Part shown: one piece after another, positions 35,476-56,304 of the stretch
How positions within the stretch are numbered: the first letter of the stretch is position 1
Layout of the letters: each line of letters begins with the position of its first letter
Assembly: GCA_003213095.1 (NCBI GenBank)
Contig: QCNV01000003.1
Location: 3,470 to 67,469, forward strand
Length of the DNA: 64,000 nt
From: SAR202 cluster bacterium AG-426-M11
Lineage (GTDB): Bacteria > Chloroflexota > Dehalococcoidia > Lucifugimonadales > UBA826
Reading direction: 5' to 3'
Program-made: the position numbers and the translations under genes
Notes under the pieces: generated by a model
What the model saw: the letters and a program-made list of their open reading frames with translations, nothing else
The model's database searches: none
What the model was told of the DNA's origin: nothing

Positions 35476-35561
35476 GCCGAAGTGGCGGAATGGTAGACGC
35501 GCCGGTCTCAAAAACCGGTGAGGTAACACTCGTGTGAGTTCGAGTCTCACCTTCGGCACCA
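35476..35561 (+). tRNA. tRNA-Leu (anticodon CAA), encoded CCA end
   Basis: Acceptor GCCGAAG/CTTCGGC, anticodon stem CCGGT/ACCGG with loop CTCAAAA, long variable arm, T-arm GTGAG-TTCGAGT-CTCAC, discriminator A, CCA. Confidence 0.9.
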
Positions 35562-48586: not shown

Positions 48587-49399
48587 TCACTCAAATTCAG
48601 TCCCAGAAAAATTCACCCCATTAGTATCTGCAGCTAAAAACAGAGTTCCTTTAAGTTTGGAATTTGTAAAATCTGCAAACGTTAAATCAGCACCTTCAAA
48701 ATCTGAAAAGTCTAAAATTGATTCAGTAAAATCAGACATTTGAAAACTGGAAGATTTAAAGACACATCTTTTTAAATCTGATCTTTGGAAATTTACATGA
48801 TCAAATCTACAGTTTATAAATTCAACTCCTTCAGAATTGATATCTGATAACTCAGATCTCGAAAAATCACATTGATTCATGTGTGAACCTGTAAGAACAC
48901 ATGAATTCATCTTAACTTGATTAAAAGTAGTTTGATTCAGATTTACATTTCTAATTCTAGCAAGAGTAAAATCAGATTTAGAAAAATCAGACATACTTAA
49001 ATCTGCACCTCTTAAATTCACATTAACTAATGAAGAATCAAGAATTGATGCTCCACCCGATATAAACGATCCACTCAAATTAGAGTTAGTCAAATCAACT
49101 TTAAAAAATTCTGCCCCATACATCACTGCATCCATCAAATAACATGAGCTCAAGTCTGAAAAAGAAATCCTTGATTGGCGTAAATTAATCTGAGCCCAAT
49201 TAGATTCTGAAGCTTTTATATTATTTAATTTGGCTCCACTTAAATTTGCACCACGGAAATTAGTGCCTCTTAGATCAGAATTTGACAAATCAGCACCAGT
49301 TAAAACAATTCTACTCAAATTTAACCCACTTAAATCTATAGAATCTAGAGGGATACCCTCTTTATACATTTCTAAAACTTCTTGTTTATTTAATACCAT
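48587..49399 (-). CDS. pentapeptide-repeat protein
   Basis: Continuous A(D/N)LSx pentads over about 250 aa (e.g. GADLSNSDLRGTNFRGANLSGAKL). Confidence 0.85.
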   Translation of the reverse strand: MVLNKQEVLEMYKEGIPLDSIDLSGLNLSRIVLTGADLSNSDLRGTNFRGANLSGAKLNNIKASESNWAQINLRQSRISFSDLSSCYLMDAVMYGAEFFKVDLTNSNLSGSFISGGASILDSSLVNVNLRGADLSMSDFSKSDFTLARIRNVNLNQTTFNQVKMNSCVLTGSHMNQCDFSRSELSDINSEGVEFINCRFDHVNFQRSDLKRCVFKSSSFQMSDFTESILDFSDFEGADLTFADFTNSKLKGTLFLAADTNGVNFSGTEFE

Positions 49400-49503: not shown

Positions 49504-50889
49504 ATGATCAAAACTTTAATTTACAACCTATGGTCCAGAAAAAATGGGTACAAAGATTTATTGTGGATAGCTTATCCACTGATTCTTAGTACAAGTGCTT
49601 TCACCATTCAGGTTTTCGTAGATAGAATGTTTCTGTCTTGGTACTCTCCTCAAGCTTTAGCTGCAGCACTTCCTACTGGTGTTTTGAGCTTCAACATTGT
49701 GAGTTTTTTCATGGGAACTTCTCAATATGTAGGAACATTTGTTGCTCAATACGTTGGGGCAAAATCTCCTGAAAAAATAGGGAATATTCTTTGGCAAGGC
49801 ATATACTTTTCAGCTATAGGAGGATTGATCTTAATAACTCTTTCTTTTTTTTCGGAAACAATTTTCAATTTCATCGGACATGATCCGTTAGTCAGAGAAG
49901 AACAATTTAAGTATTGGAGATTCTTAACAATAGCTGGAATTTTTCAAATTCAACTCGGAGCATTAACTTCCTTTTTTAGCGGACGAAATAAAACATATCC
50001 GATCATGTGGGCAAGCTTTGCAGCAACATTTGTAAACATTGGTCTAAATTATTGCTTAATATTTGGTAATTTTGGATTCCCAGAAATGGGAATTTCAGGA
50101 GCGGGATTATCTACTATAGTTGCAACAATAACAAATGTAACAATTCTGTCTTATTTAATATTTAAACCAAAAAACAATACTAAATATCAAGTAATTTCAT
50201 CGTTTCATTTCAACCGCAAAAGTTTTTATCGATTGATAAAATTTGGAATGCCAAATGGATTCACATTCTTTTTAAATATGACAGTTTTCAGCATATTTGT
50301 GTTACTAATAGGCAGAATCGGAATTATCGAATTAGCAGCAACTAACATAGCTATGAATGTCGCGATGCTAGCATTTATGCCCATGGTTGGACTAGGAATA
50401 GCTGTGATGGTATCTGTTGGACAAGCTATTGGAGCAAAAACTCCGGATTTAGCTAAAAGAGCTACTTATTCCGGACTTCAAATCTCATGGATTTATTTAA
50501 GTTTTTTATCCATATTTTATATATTTTTCCCACAAGTTTTGGTCTTCCCATTTGAATCAAATGCTTCTTCTGAAAATTTCAACGAAATTGCTGATTTAAC
50601 TAAAAATATTCTTAAACTAGTTGCACTATGGTCATTTTTTGATGCTTTAGGCATCATGATTTCTTCAGGTTTAAAAGGGGCTGGTGATACGAAATTTATT
50701 ATGTTGTCCGTAGGAGTAATCGGAACTTTTGTTGCGGCAATACCAGTTTATATAGTGCTAGAAATATTTTCTATGGGTATATACGCAGCATTCATAAATG
50801 GGACAATTTTTCTTGCAGTATTAGGTATCACATACTTAATAAGATTCAGAAATGGAAAATGGGAAAATATGAGAGTGATAGAAAACTAA
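49504..50889 (+). CDS. MATE-family efflux transporter
   Basis: 461 aa with 12 TM helices and the two-lobe MATE pattern (AYPLILSTSAF...VDRMFLS; second-half LIKFGMPNGF). Confidence 0.85.
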   Translation: MIKTLIYNLWSRKNGYKDLLWIAYPLILSTSAFTIQVFVDRMFLSWYSPQALAAALPTGVLSFNIVSFFMGTSQYVGTFVAQYVGAKSPEKIGNILWQGIYFSAIGGLILITLSFFSETIFNFIGHDPLVREEQFKYWRFLTIAGIFQIQLGALTSFFSGRNKTYPIMWASFAATFVNIGLNYCLIFGNFGFPEMGISGAGLSTIVATITNVTILSYLIFKPKNNTKYQVISSFHFNRKSFYRLIKFGMPNGFTFFLNMTVFSIFVLLIGRIGIIELAATNIAMNVAMLAFMPMVGLGIAVMVSVGQAIGAKTPDLAKRATYSGLQISWIYLSFLSIFYIFFPQVLVFPFESNASSENFNEIADLTKNILKLVALWSFFDALGIMISSGLKGAGDTKFIMLSVGVIGTFVAAIPVYIVLEIFSMGIYAAFINGTIFLAVLGITYLIRFRNGKWENMRVIEN

Positions 50890-50923
50890 AGTAATTAATA
50901 AATTGAGTTCAATATAAAAAAGC

Positions 50924-51328
50924 TTACAAATTTTCTCTCTTAAGATTCAAAGAAGCAGAATTAATGCAATACCTCAAACCTGTTGGAGGAGGCCCATCTG
51001 GAAAAACATGTCCCAAATGCGCACCACAGTTCTTGCAAGTCACCTCAGTTCTAATCATGCCATACGAAGTATCGGTTTCTTCAACTATATTTTTTAAATC
51101 AAGTGCGTCAAAAAAACTAGGCCATCCACACATAGAATCGAATTTAGTATCAGAAGAAAACAACTCAATTCCACAACATATACATTTATAAACACCAGAA
51201 TCAGTTACATTCCAATATTCTCCGGTAAAAGCACGCTCAGTTGCCTTATTTCTTGTAACTTCATATTGAATTGGAGTAAGAATACTTTTGTAGTCTTCGT
51301 CTGATAATGGATGTTGCTTCCCTGACAT
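50924..51328 (-). CDS. msrB: methionine-(R)-sulfoxide reductase B
   Basis: Two CxxC Zn knuckles (CICCG, CKNCG), GWPSF, and [10 protein letters not shown]...RYCINS with the catalytic Cys. Confidence 0.9.
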
Positions 51329-51351
51329 TTAAAGTTCACACCTCATACTCT

Positions 51352-52434
51352 TCATTTATCATATTTATACACTTTTTCTCTTAACATTGGAATTAAATCT
51401 TTCCCCCAATATTTTGCATCATCAATTGGATCAAATCCTCTGATTAATAATGTAGATGCTCCTAATTTATAATATTCAAGTAATGCGTCCGAGACTTGGT
51501 CAGCTGTTCCTACCAATGCTGTTGAATTCCCAGTTCCTCCTGTCGCTGCAGCAATTGGCATAAATAACCTCTGGTCAAGTACTTCACCACGTTTTGCAAA
51601 ATCAACTAATCTCTGTGAACCTGTAGCAGAAACTGCAGAAATATTAGAGTTAGTTTTAGGATCAACAGATTCCAAAACAGAATACGCTCGATCCCATGCC
51701 TCAGCTTCTGTATCAGCAACAATAGGACGAGTGGAAACTGAAAATCTTATTTCATCAGGGTTTCTGCCTGATTTTTTTGCTCTTAATCTAAAATCATCAA
51801 TCTTTTTTTCTACCTCTGCTAAGGGTTCTCCAAAAGTAGCATAAACATCACATTCTCTAGACCCAACATTTAATGCCGCTTCTGAAGATCCTCCAAAATA
51901 AATGGGAATTCTAGGTTGTTGGTAACATTTAATTGAACTTACAGCATTTCTGAACTGATAATGAATCCCATTGAAGTCAAAGGGTGAGTCTTCTGTCCAA
52001 ATTCTTTTTAAAATGTACATAAACTCACCAGATCTATCATATCTTGAAGATTTATCTAAATAATCTCCATCCATCATTTGCTGATCATCTGATCCACCTG
52101 AAATAATATGTATAGCAATTCTTCCGTTTGTTAACTGATCAAATGTAGCTGCCTTTCTAGCTAGAACAGTAGGACTAACAAAACCAGGACGATGTGCGAT
52201 CAAAAATCCTACCTTTTTTGTATGAGCAGCTGCATGCATTGCTACTATAAAACCATCGGCTGAATTTGAAGAATAACCGACTAAAACTTTGTCAAAACCA
52301 CTATCATCGTGTGCTTTAGCAAAATTTATTACGTGATCTCCGTCAATACCAGAACCAATTACACTGACCTGACTTTTGGATGATACGTTTTTCTCAGGCG
52401 CCGCACCAATCATTCCTATAATTTCTAAACTCAT
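51352..52434 (-). CDS. LLM-class flavin-dependent monooxygenase, SsuD/SfnG-like
   Basis: Luciferase-like barrel pattern (GFLIAHRPGFVSPTVLARKAATFDQLTNGRIAIHIISGG; YDRSGEF..ILK.IWTE; PIYFGGSSEAA). GGGGAGG SD. msrB follows 23 nt downstream. Confidence 0.8.
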   Translation of the reverse strand: MSLEIIGMIGAAPEKNVSSKSQVSVIGSGIDGDHVINFAKAHDDSGFDKVLVGYSSNSADGFIVAMHAAAHTKKVGFLIAHRPGFVSPTVLARKAATFDQLTNGRIAIHIISGGSDDQQMMDGDYLDKSSRYDRSGEFMYILKRIWTEDSPFDFNGIHYQFRNAVSSIKCYQQPRIPIYFGGSSEAALNVGSRECDVYATFGEPLAEVEKKIDDFRLRAKKSGRNPDEIRFSVSTRPIVADTEAEAWDRAYSVLESVDPKTNSNISAVSATGSQRLVDFAKRGEVLDQRLFMPIAAATGGTGNSTALVGTADQVSDALLEYYKLGASTLLIRGFDPIDDAKYWGKDLIPMLREKVYKYDK

Positions 52435-52446
52435 TTTTACCTCCCC

Positions 52447-52482
52447 AAAAAAAAAGGCCCCACCCTTTAAAAGAGTGGGGCC
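52447..52482 (-). terminator. strong intrinsic terminator inside the 5' leader of the LLM-msrB operon (attenuator)
   Basis: Minus strand GGCCCCACUCUU-UUA-AAGGGUGGGGCC forms 10-12 bp followed by U9, ending 5 nt before the GGGGAGG SD. Confidence 0.65.
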
Positions 52483-52499
52483 ATTAATTAACTAACTAG

Positions 52500-52580
52500 C
52501 TAATATTCCCACCTGTTTTGATGACAACAACAGCTACAAATAAATTGCTGAGGACATTCAATTGTGAGAATTTTTAACAT
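52500..52580 (-). CDS. polycysteine leader peptide (26 aa: MLKILTIECPQQFICSCCCHQNRWEY)
   Basis: ATG 52580 to TAG 52500. Five TGT codons, including TGT-AGC-TGT-TGT-TGT (52538..52524). No SD, and the ATG sits 7 nt after a -10 box, so it may be leaderless. Confidence 0.55.
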   Translation of the reverse strand: MLKILTIECPQQFICSCCCHQNRWEY

Positions 52581-52586
52581 GATGGG

Positions 52587-52614
52587 ATAATATACAAATC
52601 TTCACGATTGTCAA
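52587..52614 (-). promoter_or_regulatory. candidate promoter driving the leader peptide/LLM operon
   Basis: Minus strand TTGACA (52614..52609), a 16-nt spacer, then TATTAT (52592..52587). The predicted +1 coincides with the A of the uORF ATG. Confidence 0.5.
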
Positions 52615-52635
52615 ATTTTTTCAGGAGCATTTAAT

Positions 52636-53151
52636 ATGAAAAAAGTCTCTACACTTATTCTTGCTAGCCCATTTCCACAATCATCTTCAGAAAAAATTGC
52701 ACGTCAATTAGAAGCATCATTGAGTACGGATTGGACTTTTGAAGAAATTGATTTATCCACCCTACCTGCAGATGATTTACTCTTAAGAACCAAAACTCCT
52801 AGTGAAAAATTTAATCATTCAATTAAAAAAATTATAAATTCAGATCTGATAATTATTGCTACACCAACTTATAGAGCTACTTATACAGGATTACTAAAGG
52901 TTTTTTTTGATCTATTACCTCAAGATTGCCTAAAGGGAAAAACCAGTATGCTTATTCAAACTGGCGGTAGCCCAGATCATTTTCTATCTATCGAAATGGG
53001 TTTAGTACCATTAGTAAGAAGCTTGGGATCAAATATAATTTCTCAAACTATTTATGCATCGCCTTTAGATTGGGACAAAAGCGGGGAAATTAGCATTGAA
53101 TTATCTTCAAAAATTTCTTCAGCCTCTATCGAAATCCAAAAACAAATTTGA
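52636..53151 (+). CDS. NAD(P)H-dependent FMN reductase (SsuE/MsuE-like)
   Basis: Flavodoxin-like pattern (LIIIATPTYRATYTGLLKVFFDLLP). Divergent from the LLM monooxygenase. AGGAG SD. Confidence 0.7.
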   Translation: MKKVSTLILASPFPQSSSEKIARQLEASLSTDWTFEEIDLSTLPADDLLLRTKTPSEKFNHSIKKIINSDLIIIATPTYRATYTGLLKVFFDLLPQDCLKGKTSMLIQTGGSPDHFLSIEMGLVPLVRSLGSNIISQTIYASPLDWDKSGEISIELSSKISSASIEIQKQI

Positions 53152-54048
53152 TCAAATAATCCCTAATTTTTTACACATTTCCAACATTTCTATCGCGGTT
53201 TTTTCATGAGCAATATCAACCATTCCTCCCTGAAAATTCACCGCAGCTCCACCCTCTGATCTAACTTGATCCATAGCAGAAACTAAATATTGCCACTCCT
53301 CTATCTCTTGTCTCGATGGAGTAAAAACGTCATTAACTATAGGAACATGAGATGGATGAATCACCGTCATGCCTGTATAACCAATATTACGAGATTGTAT
53401 TGCAAAATTTCTTAATCCATCATAATCATTAATATCTTGCCATAAACCTGTGACTGGATATTGAATTCCAGCAGCTTTCGAATCTAATAAAACCTTAGAT
53501 CTCAAATATAAAGTTTCTTGTCCGCCTGGAGTCCATCTGTACCCTACGGCTCTAGCAATATCACCTCCTCTACCTCCAGCGGCACCCATATGAGCAATCC
53601 TTTTAGATGAAACTGCTATTTCATATGCAAACCTAAGAGCAAAAGCAGTCTCTAATCCAGGATCAATAAATATAGACCCTTGAGATAGCCCCTTTTTTTC
53701 TTCTTCAAGACTCAACATTTCATCTAATTGTTTTACATCATCTAAACTTTTCACCATGGGTAAAGTGATTCCATATAATCCTTTCTGAACTACATAACTA
53801 ACATCATCTTGAGTAAGGCCACTACCAATTTCATTCACTCGCACAAATACGGATACTCCAGTAAGAGAAATTTCTTCAATTAAATTGGAAGCAATTTTTC
53901 TAGCTTTACTTTTTTCATCTAAAGGAACTGAATCTTCAATATCTAAAATCAAAGCATCAGAGCCATACTTAGGTGCTTTTCTAATCCAGTCTTCTTTATT
54001 AGCAGGAACATACATTAGTGTTCTAAGCGGTTTTGGAAGATTTTGCAT
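53152..54048 (-). CDS. CitE/HpcH-family acyl-CoA lyase (citryl-/malyl-CoA lyase-like)
   Basis: LMYVPANKEDWIRKAPKYGSDALILDIEDSVP, plus later IDPGLET and IHPSHV segments typical of CitE-like lyases. Confidence 0.8.
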   Translation of the reverse strand: MQNLPKPLRTLMYVPANKEDWIRKAPKYGSDALILDIEDSVPLDEKSKARKIASNLIEEISLTGVSVFVRVNEIGSGLTQDDVSYVVQKGLYGITLPMVKSLDDVKQLDEMLSLEEEKKGLSQGSIFIDPGLETAFALRFAYEIAVSSKRIAHMGAAGGRGGDIARAVGYRWTPGGQETLYLRSKVLLDSKAAGIQYPVTGLWQDINDYDGLRNFAIQSRNIGYTGMTVIHPSHVPIVNDVFTPSRQEIEEWQYLVSAMDQVRSEGGAAVNFQGGMVDIAHEKTAIEMLEMCKKLGII

Positions 54049-54050
54049 AT

Positions 54051-55286
54051 TTAAATTACTCCATCATTTTTTAATTGATTTATAGTTTCTAAATCTAGAT
54101 TGAGCAATTTCCGAAAGATTTCTTCATTATGCATTCCTAAAGTTGGAGCTCCATCTGAATCGGGAAGTTCTACGCCTGAAAATTTTACTGGAAAACCTGT
54201 AGAAATCCCCGGAACAGAATCTTTAAAAGCAGCATTTTTCATATTTCTTAGTGTTCCCCTATCCCAATAATGTTGATCTTTAATAACTTCTTCTACTGAT
54301 CTTACTGGCCCACAGGGAATACCACCATTTTCTAATCGCTCTAAAGCTTCAGATCTAGTGAATTTTGATAGAATTTGCTGAATTGAAGCTACAGCTTTAT
54401 TTATATTTTTGTTTCTGGCAAAAAAAGTAGAAAATTCAGGATTTTCTACTAATTCAGGAGCATTTAGAGCTTTAGATAAATTTGCCCATTGATCATCACT
54501 AGCTGCAGTAATAGTTATTTCTCCATCTTTAGTTGTAAAGTTACCAGAAGGACTTCCTCTAAGAATATTTCCCATTCTTACCGGCTCTCCATTCATAAGG
54601 TCTTCTTCCAAAGTGTCCATCATGATTAAAGAAGTCAAAGTATCCATCATTGAAACATCTAAATATTGACCTTGGCCTGTTTTTTCCTTCTGTCTTAAGG
54701 CAGCTAATATCGAATAACAAGCAAATAATGGAGTTACTAAATCTCCAATTAAAAAACCAACTTTTGTAGGAGGACCATCAGTAAATCCATTAATGTCCAT
54801 CAAACCACTCATTCCTTGAATCTGTGGATCTTGAGCTCTTTTTTTAGAATAAGGTCCAGTTTGACCATATCCAGAAATGGATGCGTAAATTATTTCTGGA
54901 TTTTCTTTTACAACATCTTCATAACCCAAGCCTAATCTCTTCATAGCGCCGGGAGCTAAATTTTCTACCAAAACATCGCTTTCTTTTGCTAACTCCAAAA
55001 ACATTTGCTTACCTTTTGGATTTTTCAAATTTAATGTAATGCTTTTTAAACCTTCAGATCTTTTAATAAATCTAGTAGATAAATGATTATCAGATTCTTG
55101 ATTTTCAAAATAACCATCCGGAGTTACAAAAGGACCATTTTGTCTAGTTGGGTCTCCAAATTCAGGAACTTCTACTTTAATAGATTCTGCCCCTAATCTT
55201 GCTAAATTAAGAAGAGTGTAAGGCCCAGCCAAAAAAACGGTAACACCCAAAACTCTTATATCTCCTAGCAAAGAATCTTTGTTCAA
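54051..55286 (-). CDS. class III (CaiB/BaiF/Frc-family) CoA-transferase
   Basis: LGDIRVLGVTVFLAGPYTLLNLARLGAESIKVE, VLVENLAPGAMKRLGLGYE, and an interlocked-dimer family length of 411 aa. Confidence 0.85.
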   Translation of the reverse strand: MNKDSLLGDIRVLGVTVFLAGPYTLLNLARLGAESIKVEVPEFGDPTRQNGPFVTPDGYFENQESDNHLSTRFIKRSEGLKSITLNLKNPKGKQMFLELAKESDVLVENLAPGAMKRLGLGYEDVVKENPEIIYASISGYGQTGPYSKKRAQDPQIQGMSGLMDINGFTDGPPTKVGFLIGDLVTPLFACYSILAALRQKEKTGQGQYLDVSMMDTLTSLIMMDTLEEDLMNGEPVRMGNILRGSPSGNFTTKDGEITITAASDDQWANLSKALNAPELVENPEFSTFFARNKNINKAVASIQQILSKFTRSEALERLENGGIPCGPVRSVEEVIKDQHYWDRGTLRNMKNAAFKDSVPGISTGFPVKFSGVELPDSDGAPTLGMHNEEIFRKLLNLDLETINQLKNDGVI

Positions 55287-55386
55287 AATTTTCTCCCGTA
55301 TGATTTTTAATTATTTTATGTATGATATTGCAAAATTGTAGAATTTAATCAACTTTTTCTATCTATTACAAATTCAGGGGCATGCA

Positions 55387-56304
55387 ATGAAAATAGTTTT
55401 AATAGGTCAAGCTGCATTTGCAAAAGATACTTTATCAGCTTTGATAGAGCACAATGAAAATATTGTAGGTGTTTTTTGTCCCCCAGATAAAGATCCTACT
55501 AAACCTGATCCACTCAAATCTTTTTCTTTAGAACACTCAATTGAAGTTTTTCAATACAACAGAATGAGATCAGCAGAAGCAATCAATGCATTCAAAAAAC
55601 TGCAACCAGATTTATGTGTCATGGCGTTTGTAACTGACATTATTCCAAACGAAATTCTGGAGTACCCAAACTTTGGAACTATTCAATACCATCCATCTCT
55701 ACTCCCAAAACATCGAGGCCCCAGCTCTATTAACTGGCCCATTATCAAAGGAGAGAACTTCACAGGATTAAGCATATTTTGGCCCGATGAAGGATTAGAC
55801 ACTGGACCAATTTTGCTACAAAAACAAGTTGAAATTGAAAAAAATGATACTTTAGGTACTTTATACTTCACCAAATTATACCCTCTAGGAATCGAAGCGA
55901 TAATAGAATCTGTCGATTTAGTTAGATCAGGTAAAGCACCTAAAACTCCCCAAAACCATGAATTAGCTACTTACGAAGGTTGGTGTAAATCTGAAAATGG
56001 AAAAATTGACTGGAATGCAGATAAAAATGCTATTTTTAATCTCATCAGAGGTTGTGATCCAAGCCCAGGAGCAAATACAAATTTTGGAAGTCACATAGTA
56101 TCTTTATTTGATGCAACCATTCAAGATTACAATCCTGGCTTAAAACCAGGAACTATAAATCAAATTAAAAGCGATCAATTTTCTATAGCTGTCAACAATG
56201 GAAATATTAACATTTCAAGGGTAAAGGTTGACTCAGGTAAAAAAATTAATAGTGGTGATTTTATTAAAAACATGAATATTTCAGAAGGAAATACCTTTAA
56301 CTAA
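55387..56304 (+). CDS. formyltransferase-family protein (Fmt paralogue)
   Basis: MKIVLIGQAAFA, MAFVTDIIPNEIL, YHPSLLPKHRGPSSINWPII, PDEGLDTGPILLQ, plus an Fmt-like C-terminal domain. Confidence 0.75.
   Translation: MKIVLIGQAAFAKDTLSALIEHNENIVGVFCPPDKDPTKPDPLKSFSLEHSIEVFQYNRMRSAEAINAFKKLQPDLCVMAFVTDIIPNEILEYPNFGTIQYHPSLLPKHRGPSSINWPIIKGENFTGLSIFWPDEGLDTGPILLQKQVEIEKNDTLGTLYFTKLYPLGIEAIIESVDLVRSGKAPKTPQNHELATYEGWCKSENGKIDWNADKNAIFNLIRGCDPSPGANTNFGSHIVSLFDATIQDYNPGLKPGTINQIKSDQFSIAVNNGNINISRVKVDSGKKINSGDFIKNMNISEGNTFN

Follow-up and report, generated by a model that had tools for sequence, protein, structure and literature searches.

The 64,000-nucleotide (nt) stretch of DNA analysed here, called the window throughout, stems from SAR202 cluster bacterium AG-426-M11 (contig QCNV01000003.1, positions 3,470 to 67,469) and has a GC content of 35%. 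Our subject is the leader of an operon on its minus strand, which encodes a luciferase-like flavin monooxygenase (LLM) and the methionine sulfoxide reductase MsrB and is flanked by a divergent gene for a flavin mononucleotide (FMN) reductase. In the direction of operon transcription this leader contains a promoter, a short open reading frame (sORF) rich in cysteine codons, an intrinsic terminator and the LLM gene's Shine-Dalgarno (SD) sequence, an arrangement that we read as a candidate cysteine-sensing transcription attenuator. Unless stated otherwise, all results derive from sequence analysis, i.e. from DNA elements, their comparison and RNA folding. A preliminary description of the locus had already placed the promoter, the ATG, the 26-codon sORF with its five TGT codons, the terminator, the SD sequence and the LLM, msrB and FMN reductase genes, and each of them was found again at the same coordinates.

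The promoter is of the sigma-70 type (52587..52614, minus strand) and consists of the -35 box TTGACA (52614..52609), a 16-nt spacer and the -10 box TATTAT (52592..52587). It agrees with the consensus at 11 of 12 positions, is the top promoter-like site within 50500..54500 and is the only one that fits between the sORF and the start of the FMN reductase gene at 52636, whose start codon is 21 nt away from the -35 box. The predicted leaderless sORF (52500..52580, minus strand) comprises 26 codons, MLKILTIECPQQFICSCCCHQNRWEY, between its ATG (52580..52578) and the stop codon TAG (52502..52500). The A of this ATG is the seventh base past the -10 box, with 6 nt between them, and no SD-like sequence was seen upstream of it. 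When all 2551 ATG triplets on both strands of the window were inspected, 12 had a promoter matching at least 9 of 12 consensus positions at a distance of 5-8 nt upstream, and a match of 11 of 12 positions occurred solely at the sORF.

Five of the sORF codons (9, 15, 17, 18 and 19) specify cysteine, so that this residue accounts for 19% of the codons compared to 0.96% in the 59 long open reading frames (ORFs) of the window. All five are TGT, the major cysteine codon of the window (120 TGT versus 43 TGC). The last four belong to the cluster TGT-AGC-TGT-TGT-TGT (C-S-C-C-C; 52524..52538, minus strand), which we propose as the site at which a ribosome would stall at low Cys-tRNA. Clusters of three cysteines in five codons were encountered 27 times in approximately 128,000 codon positions of all six frames, corresponding to about 0.6% per ORF of this length.

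The terminator (52447..52482, minus strand) begins 17 nt after the TAG of the sORF. Its 12-bp stem GGCCCCACUCUU / AAGGGUGGGGCC (52482..52456) includes eight GC pairs, encloses a 3-nt loop and is followed by nine U residues (U9, 52455..52447); the fold of this 40-nt segment amounts to about -21.6 kcal/mol. The SD sequence GGGGAGG of the LLM gene (52440..52446, minus strand) is located 5 nt ahead of the ATG at 52434, and the gap between terminator and LLM gene leaves no space for a second promoter. Since the terminator is thus situated between the sole available promoter and the LLM gene, expression of the operon needs read-through. Among the 206 terminator-like sites in all sequence examined, and outside the orthologous leaders described below, 4 of about 190 (approximately 2%) had an ORF with a cysteine cluster ending at most 150 nt upstream. 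Inspection of such cysteine-cluster ORFs throughout this sequence yielded no further convincing case, and a candidate in L008 was dismissed.

The first gene behind the leader (51352..52434, minus strand) encodes an LLM protein of 360 amino acids (Pfam PF00296, E 7e-64) of the SsuD/MsuD/SfnG group. Its best NCBIfam matches are alkanesulfonate monooxygenase and SfnG, both below the equivalog cut-offs, and the nearest solved structures are those of MsuD (7jv3), SsuD (1m41) and SfnG (8t0u). The closest characterised relatives are hence enzymes that cleave C-S bonds and scavenge sulfur. The msrB gene (50924..51328, minus strand) starts 23 nt past the LLM stop codon and codes for a peptide-methionine (R)-S-oxide reductase of 134 amino acids (PF01641; TIGR00357 above cut-off). 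The divergent gene (52636..53151, plus strand) was identified by family profile matches as an SsuE-like NADPH-dependent FMN reductase, which is likely to be the flavin supplier of the LLM enzyme. As judged from these assignments, the LLM enzyme and the adjoining reductase fit a two-component, C-S-cleaving sulfur-scavenging system, for which induction at cysteine shortage would make sense. MsrB fits less directly; it may be linked to the same response by the salvage of oxidised methionine or by a response to thiol oxidation. The cysteine and methionine content of LLM and FMN reductase is just slightly low and not informative on sulfur sparing.

In the surroundings of the operon, the FMN reductase gene (plus strand, ending at 53151) and a gene for an HpcH-type lyase (minus strand, ending at 53152) converge with 0 bases between their stop codons, and no terminator was found between them. 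A pentapeptide-repeat protein of 270 amino acids, with HetL/Alr5209-like matches below the cut-offs, is encoded near the locus (48587..49399, minus strand). The sole RNA gene found in the window is a tRNA-Leu (CAA) at 35476..35561 on the plus strand.

Conservation and origin of the leader

A search for LLM relatives returned two near-identical clusters with 98-99% identity and one cluster with 76% identity (P0003), below which only non-syntenic or rearranged relatives appeared. Among the matches listed, the window gene is 99% identical to a copy on a contig from the metagenome-assembled genome (MAG) of a marine, uncultured Chloroflexi bacterium in a Tara Oceans sample, and the next relatives are found in SAR202-cluster and Dehalococcoidia MAGs. 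In the following, the window together with L001 and L169-L174 is termed clade A, while L081-L086 and L092 form clade B; scans of metagenomes and genomes gained one further clade B contig among the matches listed.

Clade A comprises three haplotypes (window; L001; L169-L174), between which the third codon positions of the LLM gene diverge by 9-17%. Their leader peptides can be summarized as MLKILTIEC(P/T)QQF(I/S)(C/F)SCCC(H/L/Q)(Q/K)(N/Y)RWEY. The frame, the length and the stop codon, which is either TAG or TAA, are kept despite about ten substitutions and there are no indels. The three consecutive TGT codons of the CCC run are invariant and the neighbouring codons vary (I/S, C/F, H/L/Q, Q/K and N/Y). 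The promoter is likewise invariant, in four close haplotypes, and the terminator stem is kept, the sole change being found in L001, where the outermost pair is altered from G-C to G-U so that pairing is retained. One base of the terminator loop varies between T, C and A.

Clade B has an LLM identity of 76% and is syntenic, with genes for a CoA-transferase, the HpcH-type lyase, the divergent FMN reductase, LLM, msrB and a convergent MATE pump. Its leader of 238 nt cannot be aligned with that of the window but contains the same succession of elements: TTGACA, 18 nt, TACAGT, 6 nt, an ATG without SD sequence, an ORF, its stop codon, a terminator, AAGGAG and the ATG of the LLM gene. The A of the first ATG is again the seventh base past the -10 box. 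The ORF has 30 codons, MINDNKSISRYWGYLVAKCSCCRNSGGCLL, and contains the sequence CSCC, to be compared with CSCCC in the window; this cysteine cluster is all that the peptides of both clades have in common. Two of the cysteine codons of clade B are consecutive, and the fourth cysteine of its peptide is missing in L083. The terminator of clade B is strong and unrelated in sequence to that of clade A (AAAAAAGCCCUACCGAU-AUUAG-AUCGGUAGGGCUUUUUU, with the stem GCCCUACCGAU / AUCGGUAGGGC and a U run), and across both clades the stop codon precedes the hairpin by 15-21 nt. The sequence elements and their geometry are therefore conserved across two lineages with unalignable leaders. Retention of the cysteine run in orthologous leaders had been set beforehand as a test of the preliminary description, and the run is indeed retained as CCC in the haplotypes of clade A and as CSCC in clade B. 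The earlier proposal of a cysteine-sensing attenuator of the LLM-msrB operon is accordingly supported by the conserved architecture and by the cysteine cluster of clade B.

The FMN reductase gene of clade B bears on the question of leaderless starts. It possesses a perfect extended -10 element (TGATATAAT; L081 2760..2778, minus strand) 7 nt before its ATG and has no SD sequence, and is thus, judged by its promoter geometry, probably leaderless or nearly so, which suggests that starts of this kind are indeed used by these organisms. The window copy of the gene, unlike that of clade B, has an AGGAG SD sequence. A promoter-like site for this gene in the window (TTGTGA-18-GATAAT, 52562..52591, plus strand, with a TG ahead of the -10 box) overlaps the -10 box of the sORF promoter on the opposite strand by five of six bases and has its -35 box within sORF codons 5-7. 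The invariance of the first third of the sORF in clade A may be due to this overlap, and the two promoters could compete for polymerase.

The genomic neighbourhood of more distant relatives informs about the origin of the leader. SAR202 relatives with 61-65% identity carry msrB, LLM and FMN reductase genes beside the same HpcH lyase, CoA-transferase and fmt genes, arranged in the order msrB (on the opposite strand), a second LLM, LLM and FMN reductase. These relatives are L002-L004, L089-L091 and L175; the block corresponds to 50924..56304 in the window and to 1..9116 in L175, where a sulfatase and a further LLM are present upstream of it. The homologues of L087 and L088 (71-72% identity) are located within other operons, and no cysteine ORFs were found in the long upstream regions of L177 and L178. 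Comparison of these gene orders indicates that the lineage of the window lost the second LLM gene and flipped LLM and msrB into a new operon. Since the leader is present only in lineages in which LLM and msrB are flipped, it looks like a lineage-specific innovation. A wider, cross-phylum distribution was rejected: ORFs with multiple cysteines are found about 100-200 nt upstream of LLM homologues in Nostoc, Scytonema and Amazonocrinis (L032, L048, L056, L058 and L072), but they result from off-frame reading of a binding-protein gene located upstream, at its 3' end (...RVDVAAAVCP...). Such readings are a trap for automated searches for cysteine-rich upstream ORFs (uORFs).

RNA folding and the proposed switch

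Folds were calculated for nascent RNA reaching as far as the terminator loop, with the ribosomal A site placed on each of the cysteine codons and the 12 nt downstream protected. With the ribosome in these positions, a common two-tier antiterminator of -11 to -13 kcal/mol was predicted in both clades. When the A site was placed at the stop codon instead, the value was 0.0 kcal/mol and nothing paired with the 5' arm of the terminator, which would hence be free to form. The 5' strand of the antiterminator in the window is the G tract GGUGGG (52508..52513, minus strand) in sORF codons 23-25, which ends 5 nt ahead of the stop codon and is predicted to pair with CCCACU (52479..52474) in the terminator 5' arm. 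In clade B the outer helix would be formed by GGAGGGU and the sequence GCCCU.CC of its own terminator 5' arm. Counted from the first base of the last clustered cysteine codon, the G tract follows after 13 nt in clade A and after 12-14 nt in clade B, and in the model this puts it just past the leading edge of the stalled ribosome, in keeping with how trp and his leaders operate.

The second tier is an AU-rich inner hairpin (AUUAGCU / AGUUAAU; 52487..52504, minus strand), which according to the predicted fold spans the stop codon and closes the antiterminator loop. An analogous hairpin is predicted in clade B, and the TAG/TAA polymorphism of the stop codon retains the respective pair as G-U or A-U. 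Folding thus recovered the 6-bp GGUGGG/CCCACU antiterminator of the preliminary description and added the inner hairpin that strengthens it in both lineages. The alternative pairing of the CCCC tract with the SD sequence that had also been considered there is not conserved between the lineages. A hairpin of the cysteine codons with the G tract of the window, equivalent to the 1:2 hairpin of classical attenuators, was rejected as well; the compensatory change AGC/UAG to AGU/UAA equally fits the stop-codon hairpin, and the structure is absent from the folds of the other haplotypes.

Taken together, these data make it probable that the element is a transcription attenuator of the trp/his type, which is leaderless and ribosome-mediated and senses cysteine by reading the charging of Cys-tRNA. 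From the sequence and its predicted folds we infer the transcription start, the translation of the sORF, the stalling and the switch itself as follows. Transcription would begin at or beside the A of the sORF ATG, and the leader peptide would be translated without a 5' untranslated region. With plentiful Cys-tRNA, the ribosome would pass the C-S-C-C-C cluster and, once at the stop codon, cover both the AU hairpin and the G tract. The terminator arms could then pair and RNA polymerase would halt at U9, giving rise to a transcript of about 134 nt. With scarce Cys-tRNA, the ribosome would stall on the TGT cluster with its leading edge just short of GGUGGG, and this tract, aided by the AU hairpin, would capture CCCACU before the 3' arm of the terminator is made. 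Polymerase would as a consequence read through into the genes for the SsuD-like monooxygenase and MsrB.

Several observations weigh against this interpretation. Regarding the antiterminator, an equal or better energy was obtained with 66-137 of 1000 dinucleotide shuffles of the upstream segment and an equal or better pairing of the arm with 157-272 of 1000 shuffles, so that it does not significantly surpass them; random genomic segments match the antiterminator in about 6.5-9% of the trials per clade, which is marginal. G-rich tracts pair with the C-rich arm of either clade, so that there is no discriminating covariation, and the fold of the ribosome-free RNA differs between haplotypes of clade A. 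Regarding the start, none of the 59 long ORFs of the window exhibits the leaderless promoter-ATG geometry, so leaderless starts look rare here, and a published estimate puts leaderless genes at about 4.7% in the 4 of 12 Chloroflexi genomes in which any were detected (PMC3160421). Regarding the regulated genes, msrB is not a gene of cysteine biosynthesis, and the preliminary naming of the LLM as an SsuD/SfnG-type enzyme holds insofar as MsuD, SsuD and SfnG are its nearest solved structures, but the protein stays far below the equivalog cut-offs (219.7 bits versus 518 for TIGR03565 and 151 versus 383 for TIGR04021). Finally, among the matches listed only two independent lineages carry the leader, and neither a cysteine sORF nor a terminator was found in the intergenic region between msrB and the second LLM gene of L002-L004, L089-L091 and L175.

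Some of these points would also be accommodated if the terminator were real but controlled by an RNA-binding protein, a small RNA, a metabolite or constitutive leakage, with the cysteine ORF being incidental or weakly contributory. Such a control would agree with the solid evidence for a terminator between promoter and gene, with the weak statistics of the antiterminator and with the apparent scarcity of leaderless translation in the window. We nevertheless consider it unlikely. An Rfam scan of the whole window with gathering scores gave no family match at the leader, and a permissive scan of 52300..52750 produced sub-threshold matches only (PyrG leader, PyrR, Spot 42 and others), all of them over the terminator. 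There was no covariance-model match to known sulfur riboswitch or T-box leaders (S-box/SAM, Cys or Met T-box), and the leader, which measures about 134 nt with the U tract included, is too short for a T-box. The leaders of the two clades do not have any alignable sequence in common as an aptamer or protein site, which argues against a conserved site of this kind. What both clades have in common is an open frame that begins with an ATG at the predicted +1, contains a cysteine cluster and ends in a stop codon 15-21 nt before the hairpin, and the chance of a cysteine-cluster ORF before a terminator is about 2%.

It is also quite unlikely that the short transcript is its own product, be it a cysteine-rich micropeptide that is metal- or redox-active or a precursor modified by the monooxygenase, or be it a small RNA with leaky read-through that sets the enzyme ratio. 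The peptide is unconserved between the clades outside its cysteine cluster, it tolerates non-synonymous changes within clade A, its length differs (26 versus 30 codons), L083 has lost the fourth cysteine of clade B and an SD sequence is missing. Genes for peptide maturation are lacking nearby, where besides fmt a CoA-transferase, an HpcH-type lyase and a MATE pump are encoded. What speaks for an own product is that the short ORF makes up a self-contained unit together with its strong promoter and strong terminator, that the cysteine cluster is what is conserved, and that terminators are common after precursor-peptide genes in clusters for peptide natural products. Such a product is compatible with attenuation, as attenuated leaders can have second functions. 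A translational control as at mycobacterial Ms5788A, in which stalling on the cysteine codons would open a duplex hiding the SD sequence of the LLM gene and the hairpin would be mainly structural, appears very improbable. This mode of action has the mycobacterial precedent (10.1101/834739), and the full-length fold of the window leader does pair UCCUCA (sORF codons 9-11) with UGGGGA of the SD region. The hairpin, however, has all features of an intrinsic terminator including U9, the SD pairing is lost in L001 by an uncompensated change (ACUC and a shortened SD sequence), and the SD sequence of clade B is unpaired in a hairpin loop.

Returning to ribosome-mediated attenuation, we lean, if only slightly, towards the view that the element is a cysteine-sensing leaderless attenuator in Chloroflexi and that it arose de novo after the local rearrangement that placed LLM and msrB opposite the FMN reductase gene. 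No earlier report of such an attenuator in this phylum was found in a limited literature search. The type of switch is known; new are the phylum and the target genes, and a leaderless start, a cysteine cluster and an intrinsic terminator are united in it. If this view is correct, leader-peptide attenuation and specifically the sensing of cysteine would extend to Chloroflexi, and ribosome-based amino-acid sensing would have arisen independently outside Actinobacteria and Proteobacteria. The confinement of the leader to the rearranged lineages would moreover provide a dated case in which a regulatory sORF and a terminator were born at a new operon junction.

The interpretation also has consequences for the enzymes themselves. 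SAR202 genomes harbor many paralogues of flavin monooxygenases, the roles of which are uncertain. As these bacteria are uncultured, hints on function are few, and regulatory clues count among them. A cysteine-responsive switch before an LLM paralogue would favor sulfur acquisition and tie MsrB to the same response, so that the module of monooxygenase, FMN reductase and MsrB in SAR202-related marine bacteria would serve sulfur acquisition or thiol homeostasis and not carbon oxidation. For an alkanesulfonate-type enzyme of SAR202, both the use of sulfite for energy and the supply of the cellular sulfur requirement were left open by Landry et al. (2017, PMC5395668).

Comparison with known attenuators

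The classical trp, his, leu, thr, pheA and ilv leaders of E. coli and Salmonella share with the element described here a short ORF close to the promoter, in which codons for the sensed amino acid form a run, and a terminator before the first structural gene. They also share the principle that a ribosome at the stop codon hides the segment able to pair with the terminator 5' arm, whereas a ribosome stalled on the regulatory codons leaves this segment free. With about 80 nt between the regulatory codons and the last U of the tract, the spacing is similar to that in trpL. In contrast to the classical leaders, the amino acid is cysteine, the ORF has no SD sequence and probably starts at +1, and the host belongs to Chloroflexi. 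A conserved 1:2 pause hairpin is missing, the antiterminator, with 6 bp plus the helper hairpin, is short, and a sulfonate-type monooxygenase together with MsrB is regulated instead of a biosynthetic operon.

For mycobacteria, leaderless sORFs with multiple cysteine codons have been demonstrated to be cysteine-responsive attenuators that act via sequestration of the SD sequence and form a 'Cys ribulon' (Canestrari et al. 2020, 10.1101/834739). The precedent invoked in the preliminary description therefore exists, but it acts on translation and without a terminator. In each of the two systems, an operon connected with sulfur or cysteine metabolism has as its first cistron a leaderless sORF containing consecutive cysteine codons, whereby the leaderless start is here predicted from the promoter geometry. 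In both, the peptide is poorly conserved beyond the cysteine tract and the origin is lineage-specific. The characterised mycobacterial case differs from the element studied here in the strong terminator with U9 of the latter; there is no sequence homology between them, and the phylum and the target genes are different. Cysteine-rich leader peptides have also been predicted ahead of actinobacterial cys operons, for which no terminators were found (Seliverstov et al. 2005, PMC1262725).

A cysteine uORF that is combined with a terminator has been predicted for the uORFC-8-2 motif of cysS in Rhodobacterales, where a Cys-Cys uORF and an intrinsic terminator were read as ribosome-mediated attenuation sensing Cys-tRNA (PMC8632094). 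The likeness consists in tandem cysteine codons in a uORF that is followed by a terminator stem and a U run. The motif occurs only upstream of cysS in alphaproteobacteria, and its cysteine codons are usually codons 14-15, mostly UGC, and positioned in the first of two conserved stems. The element of the window differs from it by a TGT cluster of three to four codons, by the LLM-msrB operon, by its occurrence in Chloroflexi and by its probable leaderless start, and a comparable conserved first stem over the cysteine codons was not seen across the haplotypes.

Leaderless leader peptides with Rho-independent terminators, finally, have been described for trpL1, ilvL and leuL2 of Streptomyces lividans (PMC8079986). 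As in our case, a leaderless leader peptide is followed by a hairpin and a U stretch ahead of the regulated gene. The Streptomyces leaders sense Trp, Leu or branched-chain amino acids and belong to Actinobacteria, in which leaderless mRNAs are common, whereas the element described here would sense cysteine in a genome in which leaderless starts look rare. As we read it, the element is homologous to none of the mycobacterial, Rhodobacterales and Streptomyces leaders and would work like them.

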